This document shows positions 1 to 42,634 of a stretch of 42,634 bases of DNA, in pieces. Source of the stretch: a virus (lineage: Duplodnaviria > Caudoviricetes); IMG/VR virus record IMGVR_UViG_3300033489_000157, positions 1 to 42,634 of that record. One strand, given 5' to 3'. A program made the translations under genes and the position numbers. The notes below the pieces were generated by a model. That model was not told the origin of the DNA. It worked only from the letters and a program-made list of their open reading frames with translations, and did not search any database. Every line of letters begins with the position of its first letter. Within the stretch, counting starts at the first letter, position 1.

Positions 1-152
1 ACGTCCGGGCCGAATGCGGCGGCGGTGGCGGGGGCGGGGGCGGACTGCTATACGACGATGTCTATTCGGTCAGCGGGGCGATGGCTGTAACGGTCGGCGA
101 AGGTGGACTCGGCGGCACGGACAGGGATCTCAAGGGCGGGACCGGCGAGGAT
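1..152. repeat. Terminal overlap with 42483-42634 (circular genome/assembly overlap)
   Basis: 1-152 matches 42483-42634: exact over 27-152, with mismatches at positions 6, 7 and 26. The reading frame continues across the junction. Confidence 0.95.
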
Positions 153-3100
153 TCAATCTTCGGAGTGATGACCGCGAAAGGCGGGGGAGGCGGAGGCGGA
201 CGCGAAATCGCGGGCGATACCGGTGGGTCGGGAGGCGGTGGCGGGGGAAGAGCGAGTGCGGCCGGTGGCACCGGGACGGCCCTCCAGGGCCACGACGGCG
301 GCGACGCGATGCCCTATGGCGTGACGAATAATTATTTGGGCGGGGGCGGCGGTGGTGGGGCCGACACGGCTGGAGCTGATGGAGCCAGCCAAATAGGCGG
401 TGACGGTGGCGATGGTCTGGAGTATTTCGGCTCCTATTACGGCGGCGGCGGGGGTGGGGCGGGTCGATTCGGCTATGGGCTCGGCGGGCTCGGCGGCGGG
501 GCGAATGGCCGATCTTCGGCGGGTGCGGCCAATGCCGGGACGCCCAACACGGGCGGCGGCGGAGGCGGGGCGCTCGATGATGGCGCGGGCGGCCACGGCG
601 GCAAGGGCATCGTCATCATTAAGGTCGCGCTTACGACCCCGGCGCTTCAATCCTATTCTGAAGGCACGATCAAGCAGGAAGGGACCTATTCCCTGAAGTG
701 CGTTGGGGCCATCACGACCAGCCTGAACAAGACGCTGACCCGGACCCTCGCCACGCCGGTTAACCTGACGGGTATCAATACCATAAAATTTGACATCTAT
801 GCCGGGAGGACCGGCTCGAATATCAAGGTCGGCATACACGACGCGGGCGGGACTACATCGGAGACGACGCCGAATGTCGCCGGGGTCGATACCTGGCAGA
901 CCGTCACCTGGGACATCTCCGGCGTTTCGGACGCGAATAAGGACGCCATCGACAAGATCATCGTCACGATCGTCAACGCAGACGCGGCCAATACTTTTTA
1001 CCTGGACAACTGGTATCTCCCGGCCGCGACAACAGGCGCACTTTCGCTTGAGCAAGAGGGAATCATTCTCCGGCCCGAGTGCAAAGGCCGGGTGACCTTT
1101 TGGCTCAAAAGCTCCGTGGCCTCGCCGGGTATTATGGTCAAGTGGGGACTCCAGGATACCGGCGGCAACGTCTGGTATGACGCGACGGCTGAGACCTGGG
1201 GCGCTGAAGCCTATAACGAGGCGGACGGTGTCACGAGTGACGGCTGGACGGAAGTCACCGTGGATTTTACGGCTCACGAGGATTATTCGGATTACCTTTT
1301 GATCGTCAAGACGGGCACGACAGACCTGGGCGAGGTCTATTACTTTTACCTGGACGACTGCTCGCTTGTCCGAATCCTGGAGCCCATGCCCTACCGGGCC
1401 ATCATCCCGCAGGGCGGAGCACCGCAAGTCACGCAGAGTGTCGGGGACTATTACATCGGGGACGTCGCGTTCTCTGCGGGTACGCTCCGATATGGGAACG
1501 ACGGCTGGTGGTATGAAGCACTCGAAGATTACATTTGGCACTTGAAGAAGTTCTGGTTGAAGGCCGGGGCCATCGACTCGGAGTACGCGGAACTCGGGAC
1601 GCTCTTCTTGGGGCGGACGTCAAGGCCCTCCATAAACGACAAGGAGGTCGGCTTCGAGGTCGTCGATGCGCGGGAAGGGCTTTTCGGGACGATCCCAACT
1701 GCCCTCTATGATTTGACGACCTACCCCAATTTGGATCCGACGGCCGTCGGCCGGGCCATCCCGATCCTCTTCGGCGAGCTGGACAACATCACGCCGGTCT
1801 GCATCGACACGACGATCTGGAAATACAAGCCCGCCGGACATGAGCTTGAGGATATCGTCGCAGTCTATAAGGCTGGTGCCACACTGACGATCACTACGGA
1901 TTATACGGTCGATCTGGTGAATGGAGAATTTACGCTCCTCGCAGACCCGGAGGGGGCGGTCATCACCTGCAAGGCGAAGGGCGCGAAGTGCAAGATTCAG
2001 AATGCGACCTACAGCAATATCGGCGCGGATATTCTGTACGCAGTCCTTACCGCGTTCAATTCTCCGGCAATCCCGAAGAGTCAAATCGACCTGGCATCGT
2101 TCCTGGACCTTCAGGCGAACCGGGTCCAGCCGCTGGCCGCCTATCTGACGGACCAGACACCCGGAGGCGTTTTGGATTTCATTCGGAAGCTCCAGGACTC
2201 AAATGTGTTCCATCTCATCCCGTTATCGAACGGGACATTCGGCGCGTTCCGCTATGCGGCTGGGACAACGGGGACCGAGACCCGGATTGACCAACTTGAT
2301 ATGTCATCCTTCTCGCTGAGTTACGACACGGCGCCGGTCAGAAAATCCGTCGTCATCAAATATGGCCAGGACCCGACGACGCAGAACTGGCTGGCGGAGC
2401 AGGTGACGGATGCACTCATCGCTTATCGATATGACCAGGCGGAAGTGCTGGAGAAGGAAACATTATTGACGGTCGATTCCGACGCGGCGCTCCTGGCACA
2501 GTTCTACTTGAACATCATCCGCTCGCCGGAGAAGCGCGTGACCGGATCGGTCCCGGCGCTTCTGCTGGGACACCGGCCCGCGGAGAAAATCATCATATCG
2601 AAGTCCATCCGCGACGGAGAAGGGGTCGCTCAAACTGTACTTGATGAGGATGTCTATCGGGCGCTGATGCTGGTAAAGGACGCGGGCAGGGCGACGGTTG
2701 AAGTCGAGGCGGTCCTGGATATCCAGAGCACGGGGGCGATGCACAACGATGTCTCCCATTCGGACAGTCACACGGACGTCCACGAGGATGTGCCACACCA
2801 GGACAGCCACGGCGATGATACGCACGCGAACGACTGGACCAACATTCCCCACGCGGACAGCTATGACGACACGCCCTATGTCGATGAGGATCACGTCGAA
2901 TCCCATTACGACACCCACGCGAATATTGCTCATGTCGATTCTCACGGAGATGCGGCATATACGGATACCCCTCACGGGAACACCGCACACACGGATACCC
3001 CGCACGAAGATGTTCCACATCAGGACAGCGGAAGTCATTCGAACGTCGCGCACACAGACATTCCGCACCAGGACAATTATGTTGACCACCAGGATGGCTC

Positions 3101-3461
3101 CAAGTGGCATCAGGACAATTATTCCGACTTCGAGTATGACGACCATGCCCATAAGGATAGCGCCTACACGGACATCGACCATGAGAATGTTGCCCATGAC
3201 GATTACGGACACACCAATACAGCTTACATAGACACCGACCACACGGACACACACGCGGACGGTCACACGAATACCCACGTCGATGAGTACACCGACGAAC
3301 ATCTAAACACGGCACACCTGGACAAGCATTGGGACAGGGAGCACGTCGATGAGCACGCCGACGATACGCATTTGGACGAGGCCCATGCCGACGTGACCCA
3401 CGAGGACGTCACCCACCAGGATGAGCATGGAAATATCGCGCACGGAGATTCGGAGTATTAA
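3..3461 (+). CDS. 3' part of large tail tip/central tail protein (starts at 41732): Gly-rich domain, carbohydrate-binding-like jelly-roll domains, tail-hub region and C-terminal H-x-D repeat region
   Basis: ORF 81..3461 is in frame with the open frame from ATG 41732 through the overlap (~1403 aa total). It follows tape measure and Dit. GRAIPILFG and PVCID resemble phage tail-tip proteins. The C-terminal ~240 aa is H/D-rich. Confidence 0.85.
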   Translation, partial: VRAECGGGGGGGGGLLYDDVYSVSGAMAVTVGEGGLGGTDRDLKGGTGEDSIFGVMTAKGGGGGGGREIAGDTGGSGGGGGGRASAAGGTGTALQGHDGGDAMPYGVTNNYLGGGGGGGADTAGADGASQIGGDGGDGLEYFGSYYGGGGGGAGRFGYGLGGLGGGANGRSSAGAANAGTPNTGGGGGGALDDGAGGHGGKGIVIIKVALTTPALQSYSEGTIKQEGTYSLKCVGAITTSLNKTLTRTLATPVNLTGINTIKFDIYAGRTGSNIKVGIHDAGGTTSETTPNVAGVDTWQTVTWDISGVSDANKDAIDKIIVTIVNADAANTFYLDNWYLPAATTGALSLEQEGIILRPECKGRVTFWLKSSVASPGIMVKWGLQDTGGNVWYDATAETWGAEAYNEADGVTSDGWTEVTVDFTAHEDYSDYLLIVKTGTTDLGEVYYFYLDDCSLVRILEPMPYRAIIPQGGAPQVTQSVGDYYIGDVAFSAGTLRYGNDGWWYEALEDYIWHLKKFWLKAGAIDSEYAELGTLFLGRTSRPSINDKEVGFEVVDAREGLFGTIPTALYDLTTYPNLDPTAVGRAIPILFGELDNITPVCIDTTIWKYKPAGHELEDIVAVYKAGATLTITTDYTVDLVNGEFTLLADPEGAVITCKAKGAKCKIQNATYSNIGADILYAVLTAFNSPAIPKSQIDLASFLDLQANRVQPLAAYLTDQTPGGVLDFIRKLQDSNVFHLIPLSNGTFGAFRYAAGTTGTETRIDQLDMSSFSLSYDTAPVRKSVVIKYGQDPTTQNWLAEQVTDALIAYRYDQAEVLEKETLLTVDSDAALLAQFYLNIIRSPEKRVTGSVPALLLGHRPAEKIIISKSIRDGEGVAQTVLDEDVYRALMLVKDAGRATVEVEAVLDIQSTGAMHNDVSHSDSHTDVHEDVPHQDSHGDDTHANDWTNIPHADSYDDTPYVDEDHVESHYDTHANIAHVDSHGDAAYTDTPHGNTAHTDTPHEDVPHQDSGSHSNVAHTDIPHQDNYVDHQDGSKWHQDNYSDFEYDDHAHKDSAYTDIDHENVAHDDYGHTNTAYIDTDHTDTHADGHTNTHVDEYTDEHLNTAHLDKHWDREHVDEHADDTHLDEAHADVTHEDVTHQDEHGNIAHGDSEY
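2739..3458 (+). repeat. Protein-level repeat array of aromatic-x-D/N tripeptides
   Basis: Hand count: about 41 H-x-[D/N/E], 9 Y-x-D and 1 W-x-N, mostly at 4-5 residue period. Only one His is outside the pattern. Degenerate at the DNA level. Confidence 0.95.
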
Positions 3462-4660
3462 TGGGATTACATTTCAAACTGATGGACTGCAACGGGCTCT
3501 GCCGATCCTGCTATGAACGGCGCATCCGAAAGACACAGGGTAAAGTCGCCTACAATCTCGAAGCCATGCTGGCGACGTTGCGGCGGGAGGCGGAGAAAGA
3601 GACGCCGGAGAACCGGCGGAAATATTCGGCACCTTGCGTCCACGGCGGCGAGCCGCTCCTCTTTCCGCCTGCCGACTTGAGGACGATCCTCAAGTCGATG
3701 TTCGACCTTTACGGGAAGGCATCCATCCAGACAAACGGCGTCCTGATAACCGAAGAGCACCTGGCGATGTTCAAGGAGTTCAACGTCGGGGTCGGGGTTT
3801 CAATCGATGGCGACACGGCGGTGACGAATCAGGGCCGCTGGAATGACGGCAATCTGACACCCGGCAAGATTCAAGAGCTGACATATAAGACCCTTGAGAA
3901 TATGGAGCGGGCCGTGGAGGCCGGACTGTGCGTATCGGCAATCGTGCTTCTCCGCCGATACAATGCGGCCCCGGATATTATCGGCTCTACGGAGATGTTC
4001 CTGCTCCGGCTGGAGAATATGGGAATCCGGTCAGTCCGAACGAATGAGGTCATCGTCTATGAGGATAGGTTTCGGGACGAAGAGCTGACGCCCGATGAGC
4101 TGGGATCGGCTTTCGTCCAGCTTGCGAACCTCTGCTTTGGAGATCCGGGCCGGGCCTGGTATCCTTATCGGGACGTTGTGAAGATGCTCATCGAGGGTGG
4201 GGATTCGACCTGCACGTTCAACGGCTGCGATGTCTGGCGAACCCAAGCCGAAACGGCCATCATGGAGGACGGGGCCATCGGTGTCTGTCTCAAGGGAGGA
4301 GCGGCCCTGGACGGGATTCAGGCGCTGGCCGCAGAGGGGCCCGGTGCTGAAAGGGTTCATGCCCTGGCGATGATCCCCCGGGAACTCGGCGGCTGTAAGG
4401 GCTGCGAGTTCTGGGGCTTATGCGGCGGCGGGTGTCCCGGCTCGGGAATCGATAATGACTGGCGGAACCGGACACGGTTCTGCGAGGCATACAAGATGCT
4501 CTTCAATCATGTGAAGGCCAGAATCCGGGGTCTCATGCCGGGGCTCACGCTCAAGGACTCGTGTGACCGGACGCGGAAATGGGCCGGAGGTTCCGGCCAC
4601 GGCGATGCGCACGGCGACGAGCACGGGGACAAGCCACACGGAGATCACACCGATGTCTGA
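3461..4660 (+). CDS. Radical SAM/SPASM domain protein (peptide/protein maturase type) with C-terminal HGD repeats
   Basis: CNGLCRSC (CxxxCxxC), HGGEPLL, IQTNG and VSIDG motifs. SPASM cysteines CTFNGC...C...CKGCEFWGLCGGGC...C. TAATG stop/start overlap with the tail gene. Confidence 0.93.
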   Translation: MGLHFKLMDCNGLCRSCYERRIRKTQGKVAYNLEAMLATLRREAEKETPENRRKYSAPCVHGGEPLLFPPADLRTILKSMFDLYGKASIQTNGVLITEEHLAMFKEFNVGVGVSIDGDTAVTNQGRWNDGNLTPGKIQELTYKTLENMERAVEAGLCVSAIVLLRRYNAAPDIIGSTEMFLLRLENMGIRSVRTNEVIVYEDRFRDEELTPDELGSAFVQLANLCFGDPGRAWYPYRDVVKMLIEGGDSTCTFNGCDVWRTQAETAIMEDGAIGVCLKGGAALDGIQALAAEGPGAERVHALAMIPRELGGCKGCEFWGLCGGGCPGSGIDNDWRNRTRFCEAYKMLFNHVKARIRGLMPGLTLKDSCDRTRKWAGGSGHGDAHGDEHGDKPHGDHTDV

Positions 4661-5555
4661 AATGAGACTGATACCTGGACTTGACCTGGCGCCGTCATGC
4701 CGGACGGTCTGGCTGAGTGAAGAGGCGCGGAAAGAATGGGCATCTATAATCCCCAAGCTCGGCGCGATGGTATCGGACCTTGAGGTTTCGAGCGTCGCGG
4801 CGGGACATCGACCCTGCGCATGGCAGACGATAGGGGAGGCGGAGTTCCCGCGACTTGCGGCGATTTGGGCCGAGCAGGGGCTTGTCAGCCTGCCGATAAA
4901 GCGCGTCCGAAACTTTACCGGGTTCGCGCACCGGCATGAGGAGCCACGGGCGGGCGAGCGGGCGAGCCTGTGCGTCATCGTATCCAAGATGCTTGCGGAC
5001 ACACTGCGATTCAAGGCGGCTTTCGAGAAAGGCGACAATGACGCCCAGGGCGAGCTTCTGGGGTTCCCGAAGTGTTGCCGGGAGTTCTTCTGCGCGACTT
5101 GGGCGAAGGGATATTTCGACCCCGTATGGCAGGCGGCGCTGAATTCCAAACACGAAGTCATCGGCGAAAGGCATATCAGGGTCCAGGGCCATCCTTTCGC
5201 AAATCCCGTCCTTCGCTATGCGGGCCTGCGGGTCGGATTCCACATTCCCCATGCGCTTGATTGCCCGGAGACGATTACCGTTGCGACGGAGAGAATGAAG
5301 CTGGCCAAGGCAACCGACCCGAACCTGACGAAACTTTTAGGGGCATTGCTTTCGATGCCGATGAGCTGGGACGTTTATCATGGGATCGCTGTCGTGCGGA
5401 CGCCCATCTTCGACCTCATCGTGCCCTCGGTCCCGACGGTTGAGCGGCACGTCGTGGAGTTTATCGCGGAGCCAATGTTCCGACCACGGGAAGGCGTTGG
5501 GGGCATCGGGTTCCCATTTGAGGAGGACGCCCATGAGCGATGCTTGGCCCAGTAA
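4653..5555 (+). CDS. Hypothetical Cys-motif protein (DUF483-like GxLLGF/YPxCC motif), probable partner of the radical SAM enzyme
   Basis: ATG 4653 with GGAG upstream, overlapping the end of the rSAM gene. Motifs GELLGFPKCCREFF and FHIPHALDC. The family call is tentative. Confidence 0.7.
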   Translation: MSEMRLIPGLDLAPSCRTVWLSEEARKEWASIIPKLGAMVSDLEVSSVAAGHRPCAWQTIGEAEFPRLAAIWAEQGLVSLPIKRVRNFTGFAHRHEEPRAGERASLCVIVSKMLADTLRFKAAFEKGDNDAQGELLGFPKCCREFFCATWAKGYFDPVWQAALNSKHEVIGERHIRVQGHPFANPVLRYAGLRVGFHIPHALDCPETITVATERMKLAKATDPNLTKLLGALLSMPMSWDVYHGIAVVRTPIFDLIVPSVPTVERHVVEFIAEPMFRPREGVGGIGFPFEEDAHERCLAQ

Positions 5556-5946
5556 AAAAGAATACGAAGCTGCGCTCCGGCAGATTCATCGTCGGCTCGA
5601 AGCGTTGGCGGCGGCCGCTGGCGGAGGAGGCGAAATGATTTACACAACGGCGGCGACGGACACGCACAGCGGGGGGGGAAACTACGAAACAGTAATCGAC
5701 GTTTCGGGTGCGGGGCAAGCCATTGTTTTTACGGGTGGAACACCAGCTAATGCCGCCTATCAATACTTGAAAATAACAGTGGACGGGACGGCCGTAGTGA
5801 CCGATATGATAACAAAAAAGGCGGGCGTGGCGTATCCTTACAATGAGATTTGCTGGGGCGTCTGGAACTTCAGCGTCAGCCTGAAAATAGAACACAAGTC
5901 GGACAGCTCTGCGGCCACCTGCCGAGTTGCCTATTGCTGCGCTTAG
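5533..5946 (+). CDS. Small fibre/adhesin-like protein (N-terminal helix, GGGG linker, beta-rich head)
   Basis: GAGGAGGA RBS then ATG 5533 (MSDAWPSKKEYEAALRQIHRRLEALAAAAGGGG...); 137 aa. Confidence 0.65.
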   Translation: MSDAWPSKKEYEAALRQIHRRLEALAAAAGGGGEMIYTTAATDTHSGGGNYETVIDVSGAGQAIVFTGGTPANAAYQYLKITVDGTAVVTDMITKKAGVAYPYNEICWGVWNFSVSLKIEHKSDSSAATCRVAYCCA

Positions 5947-15916: not shown

Positions 15917-16567
15917 ATGGCTATCTTCATATGCAAGGCATGCGGGAAACAATTCGAAAGAAATCCATCAAATCTTAGAGCTGGATATTGCAGCCATGAA
16001 TGCGGATATCAACAGAGACGAGGGATGAAGCTCCCAAAAGAATGGGTCGATAAAGTTAGACGATCTCGGATGGGTCATATCACGAGCGAAGAGACGAAAA
16101 GAAAAATAAGCGCCGCGCAAAAAGGCCGACCCAAAGACAGGGCGTTTTGTGAAAGAATGCGCATAATCAGCAATCGGCCTGAGATCAAGGAGCGACAAAG
16201 CCGCGCAAAAACGGGGCCGTTGAATCCTGCATGGGCCGGGGGAAGATATATTTCAACCGAGGGGTATATTATGCGATGGAAGCCGGATCATCCATTTGCC
16301 ACAAAGCGGGGAATGGTTCCCGAGCATCGTTTAATTGCAGAGCGAGCACTAGGCCGGCATCTTAAATCAACGGAAATCGTTCATCATATCAACGGAGATT
16401 CAACTGACAACAGAAATAAAAACTTAGTTATTTGTGAACGCAAAGGCTGTCACAAGCTCTTGCATAATCGGGCTCGCCGCCTCGGCATGGAGCACGACGG
16501 CGTCATCCCGGCGCCGATGATAAGCATACCGGGAAGGCCGAGCGATAGAGATTGGGGTCGAAAATGA
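15917..16567 (+). CDS. HNH homing endonuclease with NUMOD3-like motifs
   Basis: SEETKRKISAAQKG; EHRLIAE...VHHINGDSTDNRNKNL...HKLLH; GGAG RBS. Confidence 0.85.
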   Translation: MAIFICKACGKQFERNPSNLRAGYCSHECGYQQRRGMKLPKEWVDKVRRSRMGHITSEETKRKISAAQKGRPKDRAFCERMRIISNRPEIKERQSRAKTGPLNPAWAGGRYISTEGYIMRWKPDHPFATKRGMVPEHRLIAERALGRHLKSTEIVHHINGDSTDNRNKNLVICERKGCHKLLHNRARRLGMEHDGVIPAPMISIPGRPSDRDWGRK

Positions 16568-17529
16568 ATCCGGATAATATTTTCTGGGATCGAATAGCTG
16601 AACGGACCACAGAGACAATATCTGCTTTGCGTGCCGGAAAACCGATTCCCATCATTCGATATGCCGTTCATGTTACATCTGCATGTAATATGCGGTGTCA
16701 ATACTGCCATGACAGAAAACCCTCGGGGCAAATGATTGATCGAGTGTTATTTGCGGAACTTTGCCGACGGGCTGGCAAAGGCGGGATTGTTCATATAACG
16801 GGGGGGGAGCCATCCCTCGTTCCGTGGATATATGATGAAATTCGGCAAAATAAAGATTTAACGAAATTTGCATGGAACAGCAATCTTCTACGGTTACCGC
16901 CCGATGATGTTTTGGAAGCCCTATTTCGAATTAAGACCTCCCTCGATGACTATCATGCTGATCGCTGGAATACATTGGTTGGCGGAGATTTCTTTGATAC
17001 CGTCGTAGCGAATATCAAGTGGGCCATTCGGGTTACGAAGCATGTTTCGGTAAGTTTTGTTGCAACACATCAGAGTGCCCATCGGTTCGATAATTTTATT
17101 CGATTTTGCCAAGATGAATTTCCTGGATTATTTTCAATATCGGCATCATTTTACAAGGGGAATGAAAACGCAGAATTATCCCTCGATCAAGATGATCTAG
17201 CCATCTTGTTTGAGCATGCTGATTTATTGGATTCAACATCAAAACAGATTTTTTATTCGACACATGATTCAAACAAAAACGAATTCCCGGAGAATCTGCA
17301 AATCCCCTGTTATCTTTCTATGTCGGAGAGGCTTTTCGATGAATTTGGACGAGAATTTTTTTGCTCTCATCTTTTCCGAGATGGCGTGATGGCTCCGGGA
17401 AGACCAGGGTTAGATCATCATTGTGTTACCGGATGCAACGCCCGGTTCTATAAATTCAACAAGGAAATTCAGGACGTCCTGGATAACTTGGGGCCGAAGC
17501 CCGACCGACATGACCGCAAGGAGGAATAG
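16564..17529 (+). CDS. Radical SAM protein with C-terminal Cys (Twitch-like) extension
   Basis: CNMRCQYC, ITGGEP, TSLD; C-terminal CYL...FFC...CVTGC; visibly AT-richer than the genome. Confidence 0.85.
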   Translation: MNPDNIFWDRIAERTTETISALRAGKPIPIIRYAVHVTSACNMRCQYCHDRKPSGQMIDRVLFAELCRRAGKGGIVHITGGEPSLVPWIYDEIRQNKDLTKFAWNSNLLRLPPDDVLEALFRIKTSLDDYHADRWNTLVGGDFFDTVVANIKWAIRVTKHVSVSFVATHQSAHRFDNFIRFCQDEFPGLFSISASFYKGNENAELSLDQDDLAILFEHADLLDSTSKQIFYSTHDSNKNEFPENLQIPCYLSMSERLFDEFGREFFCSHLFRDGVMAPGRPGLDHHCVTGCNARFYKFNKEIQDVLDNLGPKPDRHDRKEE

Positions 17530-41731: not shown

Positions 41732-42634
41732 ATGAATTTCGCCGATCTGCTCGAACTTCCCGATTCCCGGCGGCTCGTTGTCTGCGAGCACTATCCGGCC
41801 ATCGAACTGGAATATCTGGAGTGGACGGCGACGGGCGACGGGGCTTATTACGCAGACATGGCGGACGGGGAGATTATCGAGGTCCTGGAGGACGGGTCAG
41901 GATACGCCGAGGTTTTTTCGGCGGCGGACTGCGATGCGACGACATCGACGTTCTTTATGGATGTGACCAATCGGCGGCTCTACCTTCACACCTCGAACGG
42001 GGATAGCCCGGCGCATCAGACCGACGGGACCTATGACTTTTGCATCCTGGGATATTTCATCATTGGATTCAGCGACCGCATGGACTCAAGCGGTCGGGAC
42101 CCCGTATTCGAACCAGAGATCGAGAAACTTCTGGACGGCGGACTGGAGGACTGGATCGATGCGGATGAGCTGACCTACTGGACCAAGAGCGAATCGAGTG
42201 GCTCGTCAATAAGCCGGGAGGAGACCGAGGTTCACGGCGGGGCCTACGCGGCCAAGTTCACGGTCGATGCCGGGGACAAATGGTTTGAGCGTATGGAGTA
42301 CGCGACGGACGCCCTGGCCCAGGCGGCCTATGTCGCCGAGTATAACACGACGGGCGGGATCGTGACGATGGCCGGTGGCTATCGCATCCATACGTTCTAT
42401 GAGAGCGGAACGTTTACGGTCTTGTCCGGGTCGGTTGATGCCGAGGTCCTGGTCGTCGGGGGCGGCGGCGGAGGAGGCGGAGACGTCACGGCCGAATGCG
42501 GCGGCGGAGGCGGGGGCGGGGGCGGACTGCTATACGACGATGTCTATTCGGTCAGCGGGGCGATGGCTGTAACGGTCGGCGAAGGTGGACTCGGCGGCAC
42601 GGACAGGGATCTCAAGGGCGGGACCGGCGAGGAT
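41732..42634 (+). CDS. 5' part of the large tail tip protein (continues at window start; missed by the ORF track)
   Basis: Manual translation from ATG 41732 (MNFADLLELPDSRRLVV...) is open for 301 codons and joins ORF 81..3461 in frame. Confidence 0.9.
   Translation, partial: MNFADLLELPDSRRLVVCEHYPAIELEYLEWTATGDGAYYADMADGEIIEVLEDGSGYAEVFSAADCDATTSTFFMDVTNRRLYLHTSNGDSPAHQTDGTYDFCILGYFIIGFSDRMDSSGRDPVFEPEIEKLLDGGLEDWIDADELTYWTKSESSGSSISREETEVHGGAYAAKFTVDAGDKWFERMEYATDALAQAAYVAEYNTTGGIVTMAGGYRIHTFYESGTFTVLSGSVDAEVLVVGGGGGGGGDVTAECGGGGGGGGGLLYDDVYSVSGAMAVTVGEGGLGGTDRDLKGGTGED
42483..42634. repeat. Terminal overlap with 1-152
   Basis: Direct comparison with the window start. Confidence 0.95.

Follow-up and report, generated by a model that had tools for sequence, protein, structure and literature searches.

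A radical SAM/SPASM cassette adjoining a His-x-Asp array on a phage tail protein: a candidate system for crosslinking a virion component

Why should a tailed phage place the gene for a radical S-adenosylmethionine (SAM) enzyme directly behind, and overlapping, the gene of a tail protein that ends in dozens of His-x-Asp triplets? The question is raised by positions 1 to 42,634 of the IMG/VR record IMGVR_UViG_3300033489_000157, analysed here as a single window of 42,634 nucleotides, which is the genome of a temperate tailed phage with profile matches to integrase, terminase, portal, capsid, tail tube and tape-measure genes. Three of its genes encode, in order, a tail-tip-like protein with a C-terminal triplet array, a radical SAM/SPASM enzyme and a DUF483-like partner. 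Comparison across viral sequences shows that this trio is real and strongly conserved; it most likely works in the manner of a triceptide synthase, with a substrate of a new class. The array is very probably the substrate of the radical SAM module and, if it is, cyclophane chemistry is the probable outcome. The specific reading that we favour on balance is that the enzyme, with probable help from the partner, makes triceptide-type crosslinks from aromatic rings to Cβ carbons on a virion protein.

The array and the tail protein that carries it

The features are given below in window coordinates, with the evidence for each in brackets.

41732..42634, plus strand: 5' part of the array-carrying tail gene, which wraps round the circular genome (overlapping ends; N-terminus as in a 1403-aa protein of the relative L004; gene order)
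3..3461, plus strand: 3' part of the tail-tip-like protein, with a Gly-rich domain, a hub-like domain and the C-terminal array (PF21722, phrog_2295, phrog_8917)
1386..2738, plus strand: tail-tip/hub-like domain before the array (phrog_8917, E 5e-16; ESM Atlas 0.97)
2739..3458, plus strand: array of 50 (H/Y/W)-x-(D/N) triplets, the predicted substrate (motif counts; substitutions among close relatives)
3461..4660, plus strand: radical SAM/SPASM enzyme of an unnamed family, 399 aa (PF04055; CxxxCxxC at residue 10; eight SPASM Cys)
4598..4657, plus strand: C-terminal H-G-D repeat tail of the enzyme, 5 motifs (motif reading; kept in relatives)
4653..5555, plus strand: DUF483-like partner, 300 aa, with a conserved Cys/Cys/(Cys,His)/Cys site (weak PF04467 matches in relatives; Atlas 0.95)

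An earlier note on this DNA had counted about 41 H-x-D/N/E, 9 Y-x-D and 1 W-x-N motifs in the last ~240 residues of the tail protein, and our recount agrees. The 240-aa array contains 42 His, distributed over 31 H-x-D, 9 H-x-N, 1 H-x-E and 1 H-x-H, and none of the 42 has Ser at i+2; 9 of the 11 scorable Tyr stand in Y-x-D and one of the three Trp in W-x-N. Together these give 50 (H/Y/W/F)-x-(D/N) motifs, well above the 14.9 ± 2.9 (maximum 27) obtained by shuffling these residues 20,000 times, and the remaining 912 aa of the open reading frame (ORF) at 3..3461 hold 11. Successive motifs are 4 or 5 residues apart in 47 of 50 steps (29 of 5, 18 of 4, and one each of 3, 6 and 7). When the arrays of close relatives are compared, slot 1 of the triplet changes only between His and Tyr and slot 3 between Asp and Asn, save for one Asp to His, and the spacers change at 10-40%. 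The gene overlaps described in the same note are also present: the stop codon of the array gene overlaps the start of the enzyme gene in TAATG at 3459-3463, and the 3' end of the enzyme gene overlaps the ATG of the Cys-motif partner gene at 4653.

The two ends of the window share a 152-bp overlap with 149 identical positions, which indicates that the genome is circular and that the ORF 3..3461 is the 3' part of a wrapping gene; the IMG/VR record itself is labelled 'linear' and 53% complete. The full carrier gene would then occupy about 41732..42634 plus 1..3461, and it is found whole in L004. Tail genes are ordered as tail tube (36722), tape measure (38852), a gene in the Dit position (40971) and the array-carrying gene from about 41732. 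The hub-like domain returned zero Pfam or PDB matches by sequence, and in the ESM Atlas it lies with viral clusters of which 19-26% of the members carry PF13550 (Phage-tail_3). The previous designation of this protein as a tail tip thus stands on gene position after Dit and on Atlas feature similarity, not on a curated family match, and we regard it as likely. Two hub-like homologues (P0267 and P0270) end in a Cys-x-x-Cys repeat array, with 15 and 24 Cys respectively, at the H-x-D junction.

Motif grammar, conservation and carriers

Whether the triplets follow a rule was examined in 124 arrays (26,387 aa, median 33 motifs per array). The fraction with Asp or Asn at i+2 is 0.96 after His, 0.57 after Tyr, 0.56 after Phe and 0.41 after Trp, compared to at most 0.12 after every other residue and a background of 0.24. 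With the spans set by His motifs alone, the values are 0.72 for Tyr, 0.39 for Trp, 0.39 for Phe and at most 0.08 for the others, and slot-1 residues in register are aromatic in 1855 of 2004 cases. Aromatics in slot 1 and nearly always Asp or Asn in slot 3, the pattern first noticed in the window's array, is also that of the 124 arrays taken together, and it matches the Ω1-X2-X3 motif of triceptides. Among 4343 His, slot 3 gives 736 H-x-N versus 19 H-x-E, an approximately 40-fold preference for Asn over Glu. Pro occurs 8 times at X2 and 841 times at -1, and spacings of 3, 4 and 5 account for 721, 997 and 2247 of 5015 steps (3965 together) in mixed order.

Phe and Trp cannot ligate metal and Glu would, so that Phe and Trp in slot 1 and the avoidance of Glu in slot 3 disfavour a pure ligand rule, which would take Glu and reject Phe and Trp. 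Likewise, the irregular spacing disfavours a solenoid, whose repeats would have to keep a constant period. Triceptide synthases crosslink an aromatic ring to the Cβ of an Asp or Asn two residues further on, which leads to the triceptide-type reading, and the grammar as a whole favours radical chemistry over plain metal binding. The alternative is that the array stays unmodified as a metal-binding (or β-solenoid) fibre and that the radical SAM module acts elsewhere, for example on a cofactor or on phage DNA as proposed by Kolesnik et al. This alternative accounts neither for the slot rules and spacing just described nor for the 841 Pro at -1, and it has to explain why the enzyme is encoded in tail operons, overlapping the array gene and outside the DNA genes; moreover, SPASM enzymes of the anSME branch act on peptides. 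We consider it very unlikely, while noting that His and Asp are good ligands, that H-x-H variants and Cys arrays occur in the same slot, that a few loci have an array or an enzyme only, and that cyanobacterial homologues lie among deazapurine DNA-modification genes according to the available part of PMC11437467.

The family of this enzyme comprises 521 proteins at E<=0.001 in a word-indexed search and 423 50%-clusters at E<=1e-30, the lower part of this range being unconfirmed as members. Clustering the enzymes of 172 loci at 90% identity gave 131 clusters, 77 of which are informative in that they have at least 3 kb upstream and at least 1.5 kb downstream. With an array called at 8 or more motifs in 60 aa, the array is present in 76 of these 77 clusters and the partner in 77 of 77; for other viral radical SAM enzymes from the same scan, used as a control, the figures are 1 and 0 of 17 informative clusters. 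The expectation that homologues of the enzyme would keep an H-x-D neighbour is thus borne out. In the clade of the window's enzyme (FastTree support 1.0), 22 clusters have the array fused to the same hub-like protein and a further 2 have stand-alone arrays. Starting from the arrays instead, 19 of 80 loci with long flanks pass a diversity filter; the enzyme adjoins the array in 14 of them (11 contigs) and 5 are without it. All 11 contigs with diverse arrays of at least 26 H-motifs have the enzyme alongside, one being a cut fragment.

Three further loci deserve mention. The Halomicrococcus plasmid NZ_CP100467 (L126) carries the full trio after a baseplate J gene, and the Halorussus plasmid NZ_CP100402 (L206) has the enzyme and a diverged partner without array or phage genes. 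At 4979-5707 of L196/L197, two small H/Y-x-N repeat ORFs lie near a more distantly related, apparently broken radical SAM gene without a DUF483 partner, possibly a sister system.

The proteins that carry the arrays differ between lineages. When the non-array parts of 48 carriers were scanned, 19 matched phrog_8917, 3 matched 'virion structural protein' models, 1 was a J homologue and 1 a collagen tail fibre; the last two are the carrier of L154, a homologue of the central tail fibre J (E 6e-47), and that of L131. Among small carriers the most frequent type (45 of 124) contains a GxxWIEG repeat domain of ~100 aa, for which no convincing family match was obtained. Of 120 genes listed just upstream of small carriers, 82 were scanned, giving 34 tail or virion PHROGs, 6 other functions and 42 unknown or unmatched. 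The array gene of Cumys has 61 motifs and that of phiMa 62; in both phages it lies after baseplate and collar-fibre genes and before the enzyme, and phiLo has three array genes (gp135-137; 72, 113 and 81 motifs) after baseplate wedge genes. Lys and Arg are absent from these arrays. By these matches, the arrays sit on several unrelated tail proteins across lineages. At L227, L259, L283 and L286, a 360-365-aa collagen-containing protein with 13-14 H-x-D motifs stands ahead of a glycosyltransferase-type gene block.

These carriers bear on a further possibility, that the array is modified and works off the particle, either cleaved or inside the host, as a released peptide made on ribosomes and modified after translation (RiPP), a decoy for host defence or a superinfection block. 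Some carriers would suit such a role, 15 of 124 being classed as 'N-terminal', which are almost all array without a structural domain, and HxsA counters the entry of phage DNA in the periplasm (available part of PMC13128918). The window's array, however, is the in-frame C-terminus of a ~1400-aa tail gene, arrays are fused to several unrelated fibre types, and no recurring peptidase or exporter was found among 60 next genes scanned. We rate action off the particle as even less probable than an unmodified fibre.

The enzyme, its partner and the predicted chemistry

The CxxxCxxC motif of the enzyme occupies residues 10-17, and its C10/C14/C17 are present in 96 of 96 aligned members, the eight SPASM Cys in 94-95 of 96. 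These eight align with the eight of anSME, which suggests that the enzyme holds two fully ligated auxiliary clusters. The residue after the third SPASM Cys is Leu277 in the window's enzyme and Asp in 10 of the 96 members; in anSME it is an Asp that we take to be the catalytic base. The best NCBIfam match is YhhB with 75.3 bits versus a cut-off of 445, and the enzyme lies below every NCBIfam cut-off, including those of YhhB, XyeB, GrrM/OscB, FxsB, AmcB and DynA; the HxsB model gives 22.3 bits versus 370 and the anSME model TIGR03942 gives 63.7 versus 349. Three relatives reach 75-85 bits versus cut-offs of 425-450. In all four members tested the best match is a cyclophane former (YhhB, DynA, AmcB, AmcB), with anSME second. 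The kinship with radical SAM/SPASM triceptide maturases that had been put forward therefore holds as far as the closest models go, and does not extend by score to membership of the XyeB, GrrM, FxsB, YhhB or HxsB families; judged by these models, the enzyme is a family outside all named maturase families.

A feature absent from the earlier note is the enzyme's own H-G-D tail at 4598-4657. At least two H-x-D/N motifs are found at the C-terminus in 103 of 123 clusters where this end is complete, and most of these motifs are H-G-D (324 of 509). The tail may be a self-substrate, a decoy or a metal site. Four family enzymes (P0150, P0212, P0214 and P0240) have long insertions at the first SPASM Cys that by eye look intein-like, with homing-endonuclease domains.

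The partner has weak matches to PF04467 (DUF483) in 42 of 47 family members (E<=0.1, best 4.5e-07), and the Atlas also places it with DUF483; the window's own copy has no PF04467 match and no NCBIfam match. Across 109 sequences, P139, D156 and C204 are present in 109, C141 in 108 and C142 in 107, and position 200 is Cys or His; this conserved Cys/Cys/(Cys,His)/Cys set suggests a metal site. The structure model of the partner (predicted local distance difference test score 94) gave no clear match in structure comparison. In distant family members the partner is fused to the radical SAM enzyme, and 19 of 23 long forms have a C-terminal methyltransferase domain, which the window's partner is without. 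In the L017 cassette, which has extra genes, a 572-aa protein contains the DUF483-like domain as its C-terminal part. A glycosyltransferase family 2 gene lies directly 3' of the partner in L007, L024, L036 and L097, a possible further tailoring step.

Within the favoured reading, a 5'-deoxyadenosyl radical would take the Cβ hydrogen of Asp or Asn, and the resulting radical would attack the His, Tyr, Trp or Phe ring at i-2 to give a three-residue cyclophane. The fully Cys-ligated auxiliary clusters would accept the electron, for a change of -2 Da per triplet. With Asp at X3, the enzyme would be expected to have a basic residue where HtkB has D214 and HaaB H204, R193 or N/H195 being the candidates. 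There is precedent for both ends of the link in the accessible parts of two papers: OscB, XncB and YxdB crosslink Cβ, which Asp and Asn share (PMC11002830), and HtkB, HaaB and YhhB crosslink His-C2, HtkB also accepting Phe and Trp (PMC11499958). Recognition may be leader-independent and repeated along the chain, since a CxxxCxxC beginning at residue 10 leaves no room for an N-terminal RiPP recognition element and the carriers share no common leader. The DUF483-like partner may bind the chain or tailor it further. The modified 240-aa tail would be a stiff, protease-resistant, acidic filament kept on the phage tail, serving adsorption or particle stability.

The same substrate could instead undergo other radical chemistry, such as carbon insertion or methylene bridging (HXS-like +C/-4H), N-C crosslinking, desaturation, epimerisation or methylation, and the partner metalloprotein would then be a second catalyst. 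HXS sets a precedent (PMC13128918, seen in part). The partner is obligatory (77 of 77) and has a conserved metal-type site, its fusions to the enzyme or to a methyltransferase fit a catalytic role, and the enzyme passes no cyclophane-synthase cut-off. Yet the interchange of four aromatics with Asp or Asn at i+2 is the triceptide motif, the HxsB score is 22 bits versus 370, and the window's partner lacks the methyltransferase domain, so that we hold this alternative to be rather unlikely.

Part of this evidence also counts against the crosslinking reading, as do several other observations. Scores far under the NCBIfam cut-offs mean that the chemistry of the enzyme is not assignable by family; the methyltransferase domain of long partners suggests that some family members carry out additional chemistry; and the HXS change, +8 Da rather than a simple -2 Da link in the accessible text of PMC13128918, means that the array chemistry may differ. 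Four of the five enzyme-free array loci are the collagen-protein lineage described above, for which no radical SAM gene was found in the three records searched (15-41% complete), and a radical SAM gene is likewise absent from L230 and L261, two complete records whose H-x-D repeats are near-perfect. Conversely, L118 and the Halorussus plasmid have enzyme and partner with no array in the stretch read. At the junction that bears H-x-D in the others, two of 21 hub homologues have a Cys-x-x-Cys array, and the L017 lineage (L017 3419-11208; P0263-P0266) alternates H-x-H with H-x-D; both kinds of array fit metal binding and keep it alive, although the Cβ of His is activated too.

If crosslinking by this cassette is true, RiPP-type radical chemistry would reach beyond secreted peptides to a structural component of the virion, DUF483 would gain a function, the role proposed in print for the module of the Thermus phages would be corrected, and a leader-independent enzyme that could put tens of His-Asp crosslinks on a single chain would be at hand. 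A wider picture, to which we lean narrowly, is that tailed viruses infecting bacteria and archaea make some of their adsorption apparatus from a polymer stapled by an enzyme: a leader-free radical SAM/DUF483 machine would set dozens of His/Tyr-to-Asp/Asn cyclophanes in series, as a portable module on hubs and on central and side fibres, with Cys-array (thioether-type) modules interchangeable at the same junction. The idea is directly testable, as three cultured phages of Thermus thermophilus HB8 (Cumys, phiMa and phiLo) carry the cassette.

Genomic setting and comparison with known systems

One contig of sequencing run X1, possibly the source of the window, spans 2400-5600 with zero differences, and run X3, from another study, covers 30 of 30 bins of the same interval with diverged relatives. 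The matching read sets are soil and sediment metagenomes; two homologues are labelled Candidatus Aminicenantes, which is a lead only. Downstream of the cassette, a 137-aa gene at 5533-5946 has an N-terminus that by eye resembles the short N-termini of two small L055 array proteins (3380-3586 and 3577-4872), and its product is possibly an L055-type attachment helix without an array. The window has one further radical SAM gene, unrelated to that of the cassette, which follows an HNH gene at 16552-17529 in the early/replication region.

By sequence, the closest solved structure over the full length of the enzyme is anSME (PDB 4K36), with the same eight SPASM Cys; the two differ in that few members keep the Asp after the third Cys, and a sulfatase gene is absent from the window.

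The view that no system with this substrate has been described can be upheld in part. Our literature search, in which subscription journals were thinly covered, found no report of radical SAM crosslinking of a virion protein, and the substrate is undescribed in the accessible portions of PMC10288494, PMC9062424, PMC12186529 and PMC6452258. However, both the gene module in Thermus phages and a His-x-Ser maturation are already in print. In the accessible part of PMC13128918, HXS is a radical SAM-dependent maturation of a His-x-Ser repeat protein in bacteria, with +8 Da (+C/-4H). HxsABCD (TIGR03976-03979) is the nearest protein-maturing analogue that this comparison suggests, in that radical SAM enzymes and a small partner mature a His-repeat protein. 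It is, in contrast, a bacterial anti-phage system with two radical SAM enzymes, five basic H-x-S repeats and a signal-peptide route, compared to one radical SAM enzyme and no H-x-S in the window's cassette.

A three-gene 'rSAM module' of Cumys and phiMa, both phages of Thermus, was described by Kolesnik et al. (2024), who suggested DNA modification (PMC11437467, seen in part); 'histidine' has no match in the main text accessible to us, where the repeat goes unmentioned. Enzyme and partner are homologous and syntenic with those of the window (34-35% identity over 88-96%), and the third gene (Cumys_13, phiMa_29) carries the 61-62 motifs. The difference lies in the carrier, a protein of 343 aa bearing a triple GxxWIEG domain in the Thermus phages and the likely tail tip protein itself in the window.

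The triceptide synthases, or enzymes that form three-residue cyclophanes (3-CyFEs: XncB/XyeB, OscB/GrrM, MscB/FxsB, YxdB, HaaB, YhhB, HtkB and ChlB), differ from the window's system in several respects. The window's predicted substrate, with ~50 motifs, forms the tail of a large virion protein, there is no leader-core precursor, exporter or peptidase, a DUF483-like partner is obligatory and the enzyme has an H-G-D tail, and its scores are 6-fold under the family cut-offs. What the two share is an anSME-branch radical SAM/SPASM enzyme and a neighbouring substrate with several Ω1-X2-X3 motifs, aromatic at position 1 and Asp or Asn at position 3.

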